The notes under the pieces are model-generated. The model was given only the letters and a program-made list of their open reading frames with translations, did no database searches and had not been told where the DNA came from. This document shows, piece by piece, positions 40,713 to 48,161 of a stretch of DNA of 64,000 nucleotides; position 1 is the stretch's first letter, and the number at the start of each line of letters is the position of its first letter. Position numbers and translations under genes: made by a program. The stretch is from Escherichia phage CMSTMSU, in sequence record MH494197.1; one strand, given 5' to 3'.

Positions 40713-41063
40713 TTATATGTGGAATTCACATACGTGTTGAACAAAATTCTTTGGAAGATGACAATGTGTAATCATCTGCTTTTGTACTTCCTTCATATCT
40801 TCGAATGTAAATCCTAAAGAATCATCATGTACTAACAAGTACTGAAACTCTTCTTCTTCAGAGATAGAACATAAATTCGGTACTGAAATTGTGTTTGTTT
40901 TTCTTGCACCTAATTTCCAATGAAAAGAATTATTGCATTTTCTGTACTCAAATATCTTCAACCCAGAACCTGTATTAAAATCAGCTACTACAATGTAACA
41001 TGAATTCTTACGTACAATACAATTGAACTTACGCATTATCTCCACCTCTCTCCGTCTGTACAA
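40713..41063 (-). CDS. family A paralog
   Basis: core SEEEEFQYLLVHD. Confidence 0.45.
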   Translation of the reverse strand: MYRRREVEIMRKFNCIVRKNSCYIVVADFNTGSGLKIFEYRKCNNSFHWKLGARKTNTISVPNLCSISEEEEFQYLLVHDDSLGFTFEDMKEVQKQMITHCHLPKNFVQHVCEFHI

Positions 41064-41340
41064 GAGTACTGGTACGTTGTAGTTAGGGTAGGGACCATGT
41101 TTGTAATGGGCATATTATTAACAATAACGGTAACAGGCATAAGAATCGTCTCTTCTCTACTCTGTCCTGTCCTTGTGCAATTCATCTTTTGCATTTCATC
41201 GGACTCCATGAAATACAATACAAATGGTGCAATCCCAAGAACAATACACAAGACGATAAGGAAATTTAAAAATTCAACATAATTTTCTACCCTATGATTA
41301 ACGTACAGGTACTATATCAGTAATGAAAAGTACTGTCAAG

Positions 41341-41715
41341 CTAGTATTGCACTGTTCTAATGAAAGTACCTTTACTCATGGATTTAAGCTTATGAACCTC
41401 TTCCTGCATACCCTTAATTAACCCTAAAGGTATAGGTAAATCATGTACTAAGCTGTACTGAAAGTATTCTTCTTCAGATAAAGTACTAACATCTGGAATG
41501 CCAATTTTAGTTAGATAATCTTGATGTGTTGACCAATAAATTATATCTTCAGTACTATTGTACTCCCCATATACTGAACAATATTGATGAATATCTTTCC
41601 TGTACCCTTGAGCAATAAAGAACTTATCTACTGCATTACCAGCATTAATAGAATTCACTTCGATTGTCACAGTACTTGAGCTTGTTTTTCCTTTACTATG
41701 CATATTAATCCCCAA
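41341..41715 (-). CDS. family A paralog
   Basis: core SEEEYFQYSLVHD. Confidence 0.45.
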   Translation of the reverse strand: MGINMHSKGKTSSSTVTIEVNSINAGNAVDKFFIAQGYRKDIHQYCSVYGEYNSTEDIIYWSTHQDYLTKIGIPDVSTLSEEEYFQYSLVHDLPIPLGLIKGMQEEVHKLKSMSKGTFIRTVQY

Positions 41716-41887
41716 ATTAGATATCGAACACTATCAGCTTGATAGTTAGTTCCTACTGTGTGTTTTAATATTAACTCATCTTTCAGTACTGAACATTCTG
41801 CATTAGATATAGGAAGAGAATTAATTCTTTGAATTTCTGGTCGCAAAATACCGCGAAGCTTGCGGTAATCTTCGTATGATAATATTT

Positions 41888-42238
41888 TCATTGTTTAGTA
41901 CTCAATAATGTGTTCTTCATAATCACCATTAGGCTCTGTTTAGCTTCTTTCATTAGTACTATCATTTTATGTACTAATGGCATAGGAAATTCTAAATCCC
42001 ATACTAATGATTCTTGAAAGTATTCCTCTGGTGATAAAGTACTTAAATCTTTAATATCAACGTGCTTGTATATTTTATTTTCGTAATTAACAAATGATAT
42101 ATATAAATCATTAATATAAGAATCATACGTAATTGTGAATGGCTTACCCTTGTAGTCCATTACATCTCTACATAGACTACTTTTGATATATATATGTTCA
42201 TAGGATTTATATACCTTGAGTTGTATATTAGTTTTCAT
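41888..42238 (-). CDS. family A paralog
   Basis: core SPEEYFQESLVWD. Confidence 0.45.
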   Translation of the reverse strand: MKTNIQLKVYKSYEHIYIKSSLCRDVMDYKGKPFTITYDSYINDLYISFVNYENKIYKHVDIKDLSTLSPEEYFQESLVWDLEFPMPLVHKMIVLMKEAKQSLMVIMKNTLLSTKQ

Positions 42239-42503
42239 ATTTCTCTTTATTAGATTGTGTGGTTTTATAGTGAATGAAATCTATTAATGTAATCAAGTAC
42301 AACGTCAAATAGTACTCTTGTTGATCTGTACCTAATGATACAAAGAACTTGTGCTCATAGATTAAAACCTGTTTCTCTTCAAATGGACATTTAATCCTCT
42401 GTATAGGCTTAAGTAAATGATAGTACTTATTAAATCTATGATACATTTCTAGTTCTGTCAGTACTTTCATATTAAACACGTACTCCATTAGCTGTAGCAT
42501 CAC
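42228..42503 (-). CDS. family B paralog
   Basis: core SLGTDQQEYYLTLYL. Confidence 0.4.
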   Translation of the reverse strand: MMLQLMEYVFNMKVLTELEMYHRFNKYYHLLKPIQRIKCPFEEKQVLIYEHKFFVSLGTDQQEYYLTLYLITLIDFIHYKTTQSNKEKYEN

Positions 42504-42693
42504 GTAAAGCTGTCAAATACTTCTGTACTGCTTGCTCTTGCTTATTTGTACCTAAAAGTATATACATCCATAATTCACTGTAATGTACATCTTCTGTATA
42601 AGGGTTGTTGTAACTTTTTGATAATATAGCATCAAATTCAGATGCATGAACCCTTGTGAACTTAAGAATATCTTGTTGTGTTATGATTCTCAT
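42472..42693 (-). CDS. family B paralog
   Basis: MRIITQQDI start; core LLGTNKQEQAVQKYL. Confidence 0.45.
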   Translation of the reverse strand: MRIITQQDILKFTRVHASEFDAILSKSYNNPYTEDVHYSELWMYILLGTNKQEQAVQKYLTALRDATANGVRV

Positions 42694-42899
42694 ATTTTTC
42701 CTGTACTATCTGTATAAGAATACCTATGTGTGAATTAACAGTTCTCTCTTGATGCTGTGTTCCTAAGAGTGTCAGTACTATCATATCTGAACGCAAAAGA
42801 TTTTTTCAAGTTCACTTATATCAGTTCTTGAATCAAGTGCCATATATTTGTGATTATTCTTCCTGAATAGTGCCAAGTACTCTTGATTTGATATTTCCT

Positions 42900-43430
42900 T
42901 CATAGTTTATCCCTGATGCCATTTAAAAGTGCTCTAATATGTTCCTGTACGAATTTGTACTGACTGTCTGTTCCTAGAGTGAGTAGCAATCTTAAATCTG
43001 AACTTTTGATGTGATATTCTAAATCATTATTTGATTCTTGCATCAGTTTCTTAAAGGATGAGAAGTTTGCAGCCATTAGTTCAATGTATTCTGCTGTTCC
43101 TAGTGGTTTGTGTATTGGCTGTTTGTGCATTTTAATTTTATTACCCTTTGAGTGTATTAATGTAATTATACACATTGGCTTTTGATAGTTAGTTCCCAGT
43201 GTAGCTTGAACATAGATTTCATTTAACTTAATAATTTTATCAGTATCTGGTAGTTTTGATGTGTTAATGGCAAATAACTTCAAAACAGTCCATTTAAGAT
43301 TGTTAGGTATTCTTCGTCGGTAATGATTCGCATTTGCATTGGATAAACCTTTTAGTTCTTTGATGTAATCATTAATATTGCATTCTTGATAGTTAGTCCC
43401 TAGGGTAGCTTGAACATAGATTTCACTCAT
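42900..43430 (-). CDS. family B protein with three tandem modules
   Basis: 176 aa containing QATLGTNYQ twice plus TLGTDSQYKFVQEHI. Confidence 0.45.
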   Translation of the reverse strand: MSEIYVQATLGTNYQECNINDYIKELKGLSNANANHYRRRIPNNLKWTVLKLFAINTSKLPDTDKIIKLNEIYVQATLGTNYQKPMCIITLIHSKGNKIKMHKQPIHKPLGTAEYIELMAANFSSFKKLMQESNNDLEYHIKSSDLRLLLTLGTDSQYKFVQEHIRALLNGIRDKL

Positions 43431-43533
43431 TAGAATATTTTTTCTTCATCAGGTAAATCTGTGGTCTTTGCTATATACAATTTTAGAATTAAACTACTTA
43501 ATAGTTCGTGGTATTCACTTGGTGAAAGGATTT

Positions 43534-43749
43534 TCATTTGCATGTTCTCAGTACAGATTCTTTAAGTTCATCGATGTAGTCCTCAACGAATTGCTCTTGG
43601 AAGTTAGTTCCAACATATAAAAGAACTCTTAAATCTGCTCTAAGTAACTCTTTTTCATCCTCATCTATATCAGACAATGTTATGTTTAAGAATTTACTTG
43701 TATTAAAGATTAACAATTCTGTTTGTTCACTGTGGTTTAAAATTTTCAT
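43534..43749 (-). CDS. family B paralog
   Basis: MKILNHSEQ start; core YVGTNFQEQFVEDYI. Confidence 0.45.
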   Translation of the reverse strand: MKILNHSEQTELLIFNTSKFLNITLSDIDEDEKELLRADLRVLLYVGTNFQEQFVEDYIDELKESVLRTCK

Positions 43750-43957
43750 AATCTCTTTTTGCTTTCCTCGACAGTAGGTACAAATACGATTCTTCGTATT
43801 GTGCTTGGAAGTTTGTGTTTAAGAGTCGAAACAACTTCTGTTCTTCTAGAACGAGTTGCTTATCTTCATAACAACGGTAGCGTATCAACTTTTTGTATTC
43901 GATGTTGATTACATCCATTACTATAAGCCCATGTTCATCATCTGTCAAGTGCTTCAT
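43727..43957 (-). CDS. family B paralog
   Basis: core LLNTNFQAQYEESYL. Confidence 0.4.
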   Translation of the reverse strand: MKHLTDDEHGLIVMDVINIEYKKLIRYRCYEDKQLVLEEQKLFRLLNTNFQAQYEESYLYLLSRKAKRDYENFKPQ

Positions 43958-44162
43958 GCTTTTTTCTTTTCCTGATGTGTTTAGTTAAAAGGTATATTAG
44001 TTTTCTGATGTATTCTTCCTGATAGTTTGTTCCTAGGAGTGCAAGAAGTTTTGCTTCAACTAAAGCTAATTGACGTTCTTCGAATGTGTGTTCCAGTATG
44101 TACTTTGGGTTTGATTTTTAGATATTGCACTATTAGTTTTCATTACAATCTTATGATATTCA

Positions 44163-44420
44163 TTAACTGTTAGGATTTTTAAATTCTTGAGCATGTACCT
44201 TTTCCTTTATAGAGAATTTAAGATATCGAAGCATACTTTCAATGTAATACTCTTGTCTGTCAGTTCCAAGAAAGTACAGGAGTTGAATGTATAAAACTTC
44301 TGCACTCCTTTCGGCATGTGACTTGTTTGTGTCGTTTGGAAGTTGATTTGTAAGTTTTCTGGATTTAATTAATCGTTCTTTTAACTCATCGTCTGTTAAG
44401 TATATCATTTCATTTTGCAT
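44163..44420 (-). CDS. family B paralog
   Basis: core FLGTDRQEYYIESML; N-terminus near-identical to 44457..44645. Confidence 0.45.
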   Translation of the reverse strand: MQNEMIYLTDDELKERLIKSRKLTNQLPNDTNKSHAERSAEVLYIQLLYFLGTDRQEYYIESMLRYLKFSIKEKVHAQEFKNPNS

Positions 44421-44456
44421 TTACTTTTTCCATAATAGTAATTTTGAGATATTTAA

Positions 44457-44645
44457 TTATACGTTCAATGTGATACTTTGCCTATCAGTTCCAAGAAGGT
44501 ATGGTAATGACTGGAATAAAACTTCTGCACTCCTTTCTGCTGGGGTTTGGTTTGGGTCATTTGGAAGTTTATTTGTAAGTCTTTTGGATTTATCTAGTCT
44601 TTCTGTTAACTCATCATGTGTTAAGTATATCATTTCATTTTGCAT
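44457..44645 (-). CDS. family B paralog, C-terminally truncated
   Basis: MQNEMIYLTHDEL... ends right after LLGTDRQ. Confidence 0.4.
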   Translation of the reverse strand: MQNEMIYLTHDELTERLDKSKRLTNKLPNDPNQTPAERSAEVLFQSLPYLLGTDRQSITLNV

Positions 44646-44881
44646 TTAATGTTCCTTACGTAAATTGTCTGGATTAAAAGTGAAATCCATTTTTCTACAT
44701 ATTGGTTTTGATACTGTGTGCCTAAAAGACTCTGCATTTTAAACTCTTCTTCGAGTGCATATCTCGTTTCTATAGTAAAGCTTAAATGACCATATTCTTT
44801 ATCGTATCTTCTCAGTGCTTCCCCAATTCTATCAAATCTTTCTGCTATTCTGATGTTATTAATTTTATTCATCGCATTCAT
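44630..44881 (-). CDS. family B paralog
   Basis: core LLGTQYQNQYVEKWI. Confidence 0.45.
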   Translation of the reverse strand: MNAMNKINNIRIAERFDRIGEALRRYDKEYGHLSFTIETRYALEEEFKMQSLLGTQYQNQYVEKWISLLIQTIYVRNIKCKMK

Positions 44882-44966
44882 CGATCAGTACACCTTAGTG
44901 GACGGGTCATTTGATAAAAGTACAGCTTACCTTTGATTTCCAATAGTAACTCAGCAATTAATCGAT

Positions 44967-45155
44967 TTACTTCTGGCTCTTGATAGTTTGTCCTAACAAT
45001 GCACCCATCTTTAACTCACGCATCATAATCATTTTCTTACTGTGTTGAATTTCTGGGTTGTGATAGATTGTATTACGTTTGTGTGTAATTTTTGTCATAC
45101 GCTCGGTATATTCATCTTTACTTAAATTGATCATTTGCATGTTCATCAACCTCAC
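44967..45155 (-). CDS. family B paralog, degenerate
   Basis: MRLMNMQMINLSKDEY start shared with 45563..45811; core degraded to LLGQTIKSQ. Confidence 0.35.
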   Translation of the reverse strand: MRLMNMQMINLSKDEYTERMTKITHKRNTIYHNPEIQHSKKMIMMRELKMGALLGQTIKSQK

Positions 45156-45562
45156 ATTTATTTTCGATACAAATCATTAGTTCTCTAAGATAGTTTTTAT
45201 CTTACCTTCCTGATGGTTCGTCCCGAAAGTTGCATAACTCTGCTTCTATCATTTTGATTCTTCTGGTGTCAGGTTTCAATCTTTTGTTATTGAAGATTTG
45301 AATCCTTATATCCCTTGATGCATTTAAACGTTTTGATATTCATGGAAAGATAAATTAATCATTTACTTTGTATCTCTCTCTTGAGGGCATCAATTAACAA
45401 CAGTACAGCATTCTCTTGATAGTTTGTTCCTAAGACTGAAAGCATCTTAATCTCATTTACTACGATCAACTTCTTTGAGCGTTCAATAATGTTACTATTA
45501 TAAACGGCGTTACGTGCTGGATAAGTTTTGCAAGACGATCATAATATTCATCTTTACTTAAA

Positions 45563-45811
45563 TTAATCATTTGCATTTCTCGTACATTTACTTAGTTTAC
45601 TCCCAATGTATTTCTTAAGTGTAATTATATATTCCTCTACATAATACTCCTGATAGTTAGTTCCTAAGAATGCACATAGCTTTGTCTCACGCTTCATAAT
45701 CATCTTATTTTCGTGTTTGTTTACTTCACCGAAATGGATTTCATTAAGTTTAGGTAAGATTTTTGCTTGGCGTTCTTTATATTCAGATTTACTTAAATTA
45801 ATCATTTGCAT
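45563..45811 (-). CDS. family B paralog
   Basis: core FLGTNYQEYYVEEYI. Confidence 0.45.
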   Translation of the reverse strand: MQMINLSKSEYKERQAKILPKLNEIHFGEVNKHENKMIMKRETKLCAFLGTNYQEYYVEEYIITLKKYIGSKLSKCTRNAND

Positions 45812-46014
45812 TTACTTTGGATCTCCTTGACTAATGCATCAACCCACATGTCTATATACATTTGTTGATAGTTTGTCCCTATGAGTGCCCTGCATAGAGT
45901 TCAGCTATCATTGCATGTTTTAGGTTGGCAGGATGCTCTTATCAGATTGAATCTTTACTCTTCTGTTGGCACATGTTTTCAGGAGTCTGATGTATTCAAA
46001 GCCTTGTAATTTTC

Positions 46015-46230
46015 TCATTCTTTAGATATCACCTTGTTACGTAAGGCACTTAACAATACGTCAGTGTAGATGTTTTGATAGTTTGTTCCTACGAAAGCAC
46101 CCAACTTCATTTCAGCTATTATAACACATTTGTCCTCTTGTGCAATAGACTTGTCTAAAGAAATACTAACAACTTTCCTTCTTATAGCTTGTAATCTCCA
46201 ATGATACTGATACTCATTTAGGGTTATCAT
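46015..46230 (-). CDS. family B paralog
   Basis: core FVGTNYQNIYTDVLL. Confidence 0.45.
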   Translation of the reverse strand: MITLNEYQYHWRLQAIRRKVVSISLDKSIAQEDKCVIIAEMKLGAFVGTNYQNIYTDVLLSALRNKVISKE

Positions 46231-46465
46231 TCTCTCGCCTCCATATCTCGGTTCTAATGTGTTGACATTGTGCTTCGATGAACATATCTATTGATTTGGC
46301 AATTGCGTTTTTATCTGTGCCAGTCATCAGTACAAGCATCTCGGCCTCACAGTGAAGTAAACGCATGATATCATAGGGTAATATTCCAGATACCGTGTCA
46401 TAGTGTTTCTGTGCCAGTGTCTGTAATAGTTTACAATACATTTTGTGATTTAGTCTGTGTCGCAT
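46214..46465 (-). CDS. family B-like paralog, degenerate
   Basis: LMTGTDKNAIAKSIDMFI in place of core. Confidence 0.35.
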   Translation of the reverse strand: MRHRLNHKMYCKLLQTLAQKHYDTVSGILPYDIMRLLHCEAEMLVLMTGTDKNAIAKSIDMFIEAQCQHIRTEIWRRENDNPK

Positions 46466-47587
46466 TGTTTATTCCATTCTTTTTGGCCCTCTGGGTTTTA
46501 TATTGGATTTGGTTTCTTAATGCTGATAAGTATCGTTGAATGAACAGATCTTGATAGTTTGTTCCAATGAATTTCATAAGATAAAGTTCACCGTTGATAA
46601 CATCCACTTCAGGTGCACCATATAAGGCATTGTTTTTCTAAGGGCATGGATTAAAGAGAATAGGGCAGTTTGATACTCAACTCCTGATAAAGTCTTCATG
46701 TTTTGTGAGCCAATAATCATCTAGTTTATCCTGTATAACATTCATTAATTGTTCGACATATTCTGTGCAAAACTTATCTTGATATTGAGTCCCATAAAGT
46801 ACAGCAACCATAGCTCATTAACTTTAGCTCGCATTTGGTTCCATGTAAGGCTGGGGTCATCGTAGACTATCCTTGCTATAGGGTTAGTTTACGGACTATA
46901 GTTTCATATTCATCTAGTGTTAAGTGTTTCATTTACATTTGTCCCTTATTAGATCAGTGAGGGCAACTATGTGTGCAACAACATACTCTTCCTGAAAGTT
47001 CGTCCCAGTACAGCCATCATGCGTATATCGGTGGTGTTTATCCTGTGTTCCCTTACACATAAACCTTCTGTGTGAGGAAGTGTAAAATATTTGTTTATTG
47101 CAGCAATGATAATTTTATTCTTCTCGGAATTACTTAAATGTTTCATAGTTTGCTCTTAATGTATTTCTGGAGTGCAATTATATACTCATTCAAGAAGTGC
47201 TCTGATAATCTGTGCCGAGGAATGCACCCAATAGTATATCATTTTCCAATACTAATGCTAAGTTCAAATCATCAGTCTCTTCATATACTATGAGAATTTC
47301 AAGTTGTCTGGCAGCGACGCGTTCGGTATATTGATTTGAGTTTGCAATGATATTCATAGTTTACTCTTTATGTAATTCTTGAGTGCAATTAAGTATTCCC
47401 CTACATAATACTCCTGAAAGTCTGTATCCAAAAATGCACCCATAAGTAAATCTTTTTCTAATACCCTTGATAAGTTAAGGTCTGCATTTGAAAGGTATAT
47501 AAGTAAGATTTCACCCTGTGCGGAATTGAAACGTTTCTTATATTCTTCTGGTGTTAAAAAATCATAGTTTACTCTTAATATCTTCTA

Positions 47588-47770
47588 TTAAAAATGAATC
47601 CAATCGTCAACATACTCTTCCTGATGGTTTGTGTTCAGTACAGCCAACATGCGGATCTCTGCTCTTGCAACTTGGATTTCAGTTTTAGAAAGGTCTTTGC
47701 TGATATCAAACATTAAGTCCATGTATTTCAAGATAAGACCGAATGATTGGGTTCGTGTTATAGTTTTCAT
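47588..47770 (-). CDS. family B paralog
   Basis: core VLNTNHQEEYVDDWI. Confidence 0.4.
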   Translation of the reverse strand: MKTITRTQSFGLILKYMDLMFDISKDLSKTEIQVARAEIRMLAVLNTNHQEEYVDDWIHF

Positions 47771-47967
47771 TGTTTCCTCGTGGACAATATTTCATTTTTC
47801 AATGCATCCATATATTGAATCACCCATCTTCCCTGATAGCTTGTTCCCAATGTAATCAAAAGGTATAACTCAATTCGTTCTAAGTTTGTGTCTGTGTTAT
47901 AAATCTTTACCATGTTTTTACGTAACAGTTCTTGATAATCTTCTTTATTTAAAATACGCATTTTCAT
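47767..47967 (-). CDS. family B paralog
   Basis: MKMRILNKEDYQ start; core TLGTSYQGRWVIQYM. Confidence 0.45.
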   Translation of the reverse strand: MKMRILNKEDYQELLRKNMVKIYNTDTNLERIELYLLITLGTSYQGRWVIQYMDALKNEILSTRKQ

Positions 47968-48161
47968 AGTCTACCTTTTATGTCCCTTCGTAATTCTTGT
48001 AAGTATAGTTCGATATACTTTTCTTGATAGTTAGTTCCTATGAAAAGTTTCATAACCAATTCACGCTTATATGCAATACCACGGATATGTGACATATGTA
48101 GGATATATGCCATGTTGGATATGAGTGTGTGGTTGTGCTCTTCTTCAGTTAAAATACGCAT
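47964..48161 (-). CDS. family B paralog
   Basis: MRILTEEEH start; core FIGTNYQEKYIELYL. Confidence 0.45.
   Translation of the reverse strand: MRILTEEEHNHTLISNMAYILHMSHIRGIAYKRELVMKLFIGTNYQEKYIELYLQELRRDIKGRL

Follow-up and report, generated by a model that had tools for sequence, protein, structure and literature searches.

The question raised by this locus is whether an open reading frame (ORF) carrying the core of a small protein family three times encodes one multi-domain protein or has some other origin. The ORF lies on the minus strand at 42900..43430 of the window, by which we mean the whole 64,000-nt stretch analysed here from the record of Escherichia phage CMSTMSU (MH494197.1). It opens with ATG and translates into 176 aa, in which IYVQATLGTNYQ occurs twice and LLTLGTDSQYKFVQEHIRALL once, giving three LGTNYQ-type cores. 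The original prediction offered two readings, a fusion of three family units or the loss of stop and start signals between three genes. Our comparison with related phages indicates that the ORF is almost certainly an artefact, produced by errors in base calling or assembly, beneath which lie three separate small genes.

The window comes from an Asteriusvirus (PBECO4/121Q-like) jumbo coliphage. Thirty-five phage records match, the closest relatives being WPEC5, EC.P1, Ecwhy_1, fEgEco12, and WPEC3, with PBECO4 and 121Q more distant. The phage collection searched held no exact copy of the window, and complete E. coli genomes and plasmids gave no match. The ORF falls within the following feature, a region that is 96-98% identical to WPEC5 and fEgEco12:

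41667..48161, minus strand: tandem array of about 27 small paralogs (phrog_4148), 65-89 aa in relatives, closely packed so that stops and starts overlap

When all six frames were scanned for the motif, the minus strand from 41.7 to 48.1 kb proved to hold about 25 LGTNYQ-type cores. The WPEC5 annotation shows the array as an unbroken run of 29 co-oriented genes encoding proteins of 65-89 aa. These 29 paralogs share the consensus M..L...EY...E......LGTNYQE..V...I..L...I..K with a mean column identity of 30%, and 28 of them match phrog_4148, a PHROG listed as being of unknown function. Against Pfam, the ORF, the genes around it, and the 29 intact paralogs gave nothing but sub-threshold noise. The window array is collinear with WPEC5_CDS0647-0676 and fEgEco12 g057-g087, and it occupies the same place by the terminal repeat as other phrog_4148 arrays (121Q gp335-340, WPEC5_CDS0647-0676, and fEgEco12 g057-g084). 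The direct terminal repeat of fEgEco12 is 20,993 bp long (PMC13070987). Its array begins right after the left terminal repeat, at ~21,091 of the record. WPEC5 CDS0660 and CDS0670 are without counterparts in the window (at 44410-44645 and 46929-46938, respectively), so the window holds about 27 members rather than 29, and copy number varies between close relatives.

Searching 5.8 billion proteins with a profile returned 126 homologs, all from Asteriusvirus-type genomes or contigs; 125 are 52-102 aa long, and the remaining one is a two-unit protein of 154 aa. The family goes undiscussed in publications on phages UE-S1, fEgEco12, Sharanji, and phAPEC6, and its members are not among the virion proteins reported there. 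The location by the terminal repeat, together with operon-like packing, high non-synonymous divergence, and differences in copy number, suggests that the array genes are dispensable accessory genes. They possibly encode early proteins, perhaps with a part in host takeover or counter-defence. As a set of ~27-29 fast-evolving, small four-helix proteins with lineage-variable copy number, the array is of modest interest, and its members are already recorded as hypothetical proteins.

We then examined what the ORF holds. That the family core occurs three times was borne out by the translation and by two profiles. The phrog_4148 profile matched the 176-aa ORF in three stretches (E = 9.6e-27), which places it in the family. 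A hidden Markov model (HMM) made from the 29 intact WPEC5 paralogs, with a profile length of 73 positions, likewise found three domains. With support from both the PHROG and the HMM, the three-core match is not due to chance. The HMM delimited the modules as follows:

ORF residues 1-27: module 1, matching profile positions 38-64 of 73
ORF residues 50-87: module 2, matching profile positions 18-56 of 73
ORF residues 108-176: module 3, matching profile positions 2-71 of 73, the sole complete unit

Module 1 lacks 46 of the 73 profile positions, and module 2 lacks 34. The linkers between modules, GLSNANANHYRRRIPNNLKWTV and KPMCIITLIHSKGNKIK, show no resemblance to the family; they are out-of-frame translation. 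The ORF is a chimera that consists of the middle of one gene (gene A), a linker, the middle of a second (gene B), another linker, and the whole of a third (gene C). The exact 176-aa product was absent among 15 billion proteins searched.

To see what a complete unit looks like, we modeled one with AlphaFold2 using the paralog alignment. The model has a pLDDT of 94.6 and four helices, spanning residues 8-17, 19-26, 32-47, and 53-73. The LGT motif lies between helices 3 and 4 and is tied to the N-terminus by a one-residue β-bridge, suggesting that this motif is a structural turn on which the N-terminus docks. As modeled, then, the conserved LGT motif would be a docking turn whose partner is absent from modules 1 and 2. 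A Foldseek search of the unit model against the PDB gave only hits with E > 1, and a fold search of BFVD matched solely other Asteriusvirus proteins.

We compared the locus with its orthologs in relatives, bringing in ten further phages, and 13 phages have the layout described below. The genes that underlie the ORF, the next gene downstream, and the two annotated reference loci are as follows:

43303..43543, minus strand: gene A, ortholog of WPEC5_CDS0654 and fEgEco12 g079; 80 aa when repaired, broken by two 1-nt deletions
43100..43339, minus strand: gene B, ortholog of WPEC5_CDS0653 and fEgEco12 g080; 80 aa when repaired, broken by three 1-nt deletions
42900..43130, minus strand: gene C, ortholog of WPEC5_CDS0652 and fEgEco12 g081; 76 aa, intact, starting at an ATG internal to the ORF (MHKQPIHK...)
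42690..42903, minus strand: gene D, next downstream, ortholog of WPEC5_CDS0651; 71 aa when repaired, with two 1-nt deletions
WPEC5 locus: CDS0654, CDS0653, and CDS0652, annotated at 80, 78, and 76 aa
fEgEco12 locus: g079, g080, and g081, annotated at 78, 83, and 79 aa

The first 37 codons of gene A form a separate small ORF in the window (43430..43543), and gene D appears as two ORFs, 42781..42903 with 40 aa and 42662..42796 with 44 aa. The start of gene B and the end of gene A overlap by 37 nt in the window. Neighbours at the WPEC5 and fEgEco12 loci overlap by ~30-40 nt, and successive genes there are one frame apart.

All 13 relatives share one layout of three separate, overlapping ORFs (77-83, 77-83, and 73-79 aa), each with a single motif. 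The three-motif ORF is found in the window only and in none of the 13, and this comparison with orthologous loci, which had been proposed as a check along with the original prediction, settled the question of an artefact. Patterns of substitution lend minor support to the three gene frames: across relatives, the share of synonymous changes was highest in the annotated frame for A, B, and C. The difference was weak for A and B, and for gene C the share was 17/42 in the annotated frame versus 3/40 and 7/42 in the other two.

Relatives also differ at the position of genes A and B. In 121Q-like phages, a single gene stands in place of A and B, and the locus is ~215 bp shorter. In the window, a 57-nt direct repeat common to A and B (43182-43238 and 43386-43442, 204 nt apart, 82% identity) covers the EIYVQATLGTNYQ core; outside the repeat, the two genes have diverged, and their proteins are 49% identical. 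The repeat and the single 121Q-like gene point to lineage-specific duplication or gene conversion within the array.

These results bear directly on the proposal that tandem family units are truly fused into one three-domain protein in this lineage. It has in its favour 176 open codons with three family cores, as in true tandem-domain fusions of adjacent paralogs, where several cores lie in one open frame. The ORF differs from such fusions in that its modules are incomplete, its linkers are out of frame, and its architecture recurs in no ortholog. The truncated modules are also without the N-terminal strand and helices of the confidently modeled unit, 125 of the 126 database homologs have the length of one unit, and the exact product is unrecorded. 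The comparison contradicts the fusion claim at this locus, and we give it almost no credence.

One homolog speaks for fusion elsewhere in the family:

L018:371-835 (ENA metagenome scaffold): two-unit ORF encoding protein P0001, 154 aa

P0001 is the sole multi-unit protein among the 126 homologs, and its units are orthologs of the window genes at 43954-44194 and 43727-43957. The in-frame join arises from a 5-nt difference at an ATGA-type junction (GGAAAAGATA-----CATGAAA versus GGAAAAGAAAAAAAGCATGAAG). This join is either real or an assembly error. Given P0001, read-through of neighbouring array genes may sometimes be real.

We next aligned positions 42650-43800 of the window (1,151 nt) with WPEC5, fEgEco12, and PBECO4. 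The window has seven one-base gaps, mostly in A/T runs, and the three aligned relatives have none. The base is present at all seven sites in all 13 relatives, whose own private one-base deletions number 0-1 over the stretch. The sites, with each change given on the coding strand, are as follows:

43438-43443, minus strand: site 1, A7 in the 13 relatives to A6; severs the N-terminus of gene A from the ORF
43350-43353, minus strand: site 2, A5 in the 13 relatives to A4; the frame leaves gene A
43281-43286, minus strand: site 3, GTTTT(T/C)GAAG in relatives to GTTTT-GAAG; the frame enters gene B
43181/43182, minus strand: site 4, CAAGAAG to CAAAAG, with the G lost directly after the second LGTNYQ motif; the frame leaves gene B
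43147-43149, minus strand: site 5, A4 to A3; the frame enters gene C upstream of its ATG at 43130
42802-42809, minus strand: site 6, in gene D, one base lost at CTT[C/G]-A-run
42695/42696, minus strand: site 7, in gene D, AAAAGATATGA to AAAAATATGA; the G of GGAAAA[G]ATATGA is lost, putting the native stop out of frame

The base missing at site 7 is G in the relatives, except for an A in one of the 13. Four sites (2-5) lie inside the 176-aa ORF, and site 1 lies just upstream. Filling the seven gaps yielded intact ORFs of 71, 80, 80, 76, and 71 aa that agree with the annotated genes of relatives. Repaired A, B, and C each match phrog_4148 over the full length of the profile (E = 2.6e-18, 2.5e-19, and 1e-11, respectively). 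In the paralog HMM, repaired A and B each span profile positions 1-72, and repaired C spans 2-71 of 73. The single-unit architecture of the family (65-89 aa, one core per protein) does not describe the 176-aa ORF, and it describes all three products after base repair.

These sites explain how the ORF comes about. Each of the genes is one frame off its upstream neighbour, and single-base losses, mostly in A/T homopolymers, carry the reading frame from one gene to the next. Sites 2 and 3, between the cores of A and B, move the frame from A to B, and sites 4 and 5, which fall after the core of B but before gene C starts, move it from B to C. The resulting stop-free path crosses the LGTNYQ cores of all three genes. 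Loss of a base at site 1 (A7 to A6) strips gene A of its N-terminus, leaving the ORF to open at an internal methionine.

The second reading in the original prediction, lost signals between three genes, was thus right about the three genes and wrong about the mechanism, since the signals persist and the frame is shifted. Genes A, B, and C keep their start codons (43543, 43339, and 43130) in the native frames, and genes A and B likewise keep their stops (TAA ending at 43303 and TAG ending at 43100, respectively). What sets this locus apart from phrog_4148 members elsewhere is that A and B are frameshifted and apparently joined to C.

An alternative takes the sequence as correct and supposes unconventional decoding, by programmed frameshifting or transcriptional slippage at A/T runs, which would join or separate the units. 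Several sites are indeed A-runs (A6 and A4) in a slippage-capable context. However, the genes of relatives are plain ORFs, each with its own ATG in its own frame, and need no recoding, whereas the window would need four or five consecutive shifts within 300 nt. Moreover, the same shortening of runs occurs at hundreds of unrelated sites, coding and non-coding (see below). Recoding is therefore scarcely credible.

To place the seven deletions in context, we compared the whole 64-kb window with WPEC5 (70 kb) and fEgEco12 (50 kb). Relative to WPEC5, one-base deletions in the window number 296 and one-base insertions 15; relative to fEgEco12, the counts are 245 and 4. Deletions thus outnumber insertions by ~20-60 to 1. 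The same deletion was seen against both references in 234 of 246 cases, so the deletions are specific to the window. As a control, WPEC5 and fEgEco12 were compared with each other over 46.9 kb, which gave only 21 one-base gaps, evenly split (12 and 9).

The share of homopolymers shortened in the window rises steeply with run length: 0.4% at length 1, 0.9% at 2, 1.8% at 3, 6% at 4, 33% at 5, 79% at 6, and 90% at 7. No run of at least three bases is lengthened. About 22% of the one-base deletions fall outside homopolymers. Deletions are present in every 4-kb bin, in coding and non-coding sequence alike, at ~5 per kb overall (range 3-10 per kb). The array is not enriched, with 15-18 deletions per 4 kb compared with 11-17 per 4 kb in the flanking 40 kb. 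A frameshifting indel affects 16 of the 29 WPEC5 array members, a proportion not above that of the rest of the window. Among WPEC5 ORFs of at least 70 aa, 110 of 141 (78%) are frameshifted in the window, as are 38 of the 42 of at least 150 aa, including annotated genes for an RNA ligase, a cytidyltransferase, and a Dam methyltransferase. With four fifths of its genes frameshifted, the phage would not be viable as written.

This pattern also bears on the possibility that the frameshifts are real mutations, with the array decaying by homopolymer slippage and the 176-aa ORF being a non-functional pseudogene read-through. Features of the array are compatible with decay: it is fast evolving and variable in copy number (for example, the one 121Q-like gene compared with the PBECO4-like A and B), non-synonymous changes are frequent, its members are therefore probably dispensable, and 16 of 29 are affected. 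However, the frameshifts are not confined to dispensable array genes, their density in the array equals that of the flanks, and the same pattern runs through all 64 kb and breaks enzyme genes. Shortening of 79-90% of runs of length 6-7 is saturation beyond what mutation would produce in a viable phage, and two good assemblies at similar divergence differ by only 21 evenly split one-base gaps. We therefore regard genuine decay of the array as very unlikely.

It is likewise very unlikely that the deletions are real in this isolate and that a chimeric 176-aa protein is made from parts of the three neighbouring paralogs. If so, multi-core proteins would be newly arising by slippage in a hypervariable jumbo-phage array, and the L018 protein would perhaps be another such case.

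Errors in the sequence are almost certainly the explanation. The shortening of runs is one-sided, length-dependent, and near saturation, and the damage to genes is incompatible with viability; from this we infer that the cause is very probably sequencing, in the form of an unpolished, long-read-like consensus, and not mutation. Homopolymer indels that split genes are documented in long-read-only phage assemblies (PMC10438801). The window resembles unpolished long-read (nanopore-type) assemblies of this kind (PMC10438801) in its excess of deletions, in the steep rise with run length, in having genes split or falsely joined, and in carrying errors everywhere regardless of gene. It departs from a typical homopolymer artefact in that about a fifth of its deletions are at non-homopolymer positions, and from a uniform artefact in that errors per run are more frequent over the last 16 kb. 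Exact-pattern scans of IMG/VR for the B/C junction matched neither the deleted nor the undeleted version.

The ORF is not a real feature, and genes A, B, and C are ordinary phrog_4148 members with nothing new about them. The main value of the case is as a warning. Findings in this window that concern ORF length, fusion, truncation, lost stops, overlapping fragments, or pseudogenes should first be checked against relatives.

Three further observations were made in the window. The first concerns the distribution of deletions, whose density doubles from ~3-4 to ~7-10 per kb in the segment 48000-64000. The shortened share of runs of at least four bases likewise rises, from 134/806 before this segment to 78/280 within it. 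The increase sets in where the window passes into sequence homologous to the fEgEco12 terminal repeat of 20,993 bp; coverage, a collapsed repeat, or composition might lie behind it.

The second is another family of paralogs, located at 40713-42238 on the minus strand; its proteins are 116-124 aa long and carry the motif STLS(P/E)EEYFQ.SLVHD. The family had no Pfam match. Its members are interleaved with one gene of the LGTNYQ family:

40713-41063, minus strand: STLS(P/E)EEYFQ.SLVHD family member
41341-41715, minus strand: STLS(P/E)EEYFQ.SLVHD family member
41667-41891, minus strand: LGTNYQ-family gene
41888-42238, minus strand: STLS(P/E)EEYFQ.SLVHD family member

The third is an isolated LGTQYQ-type core (…KVLMYLGTQYQEQVVKEYIDSLQKDIRYVQ, followed by a stop) at ~27044 on the minus strand, ~15 kb from the array, which may be a dispersed member of the LGTNYQ family.
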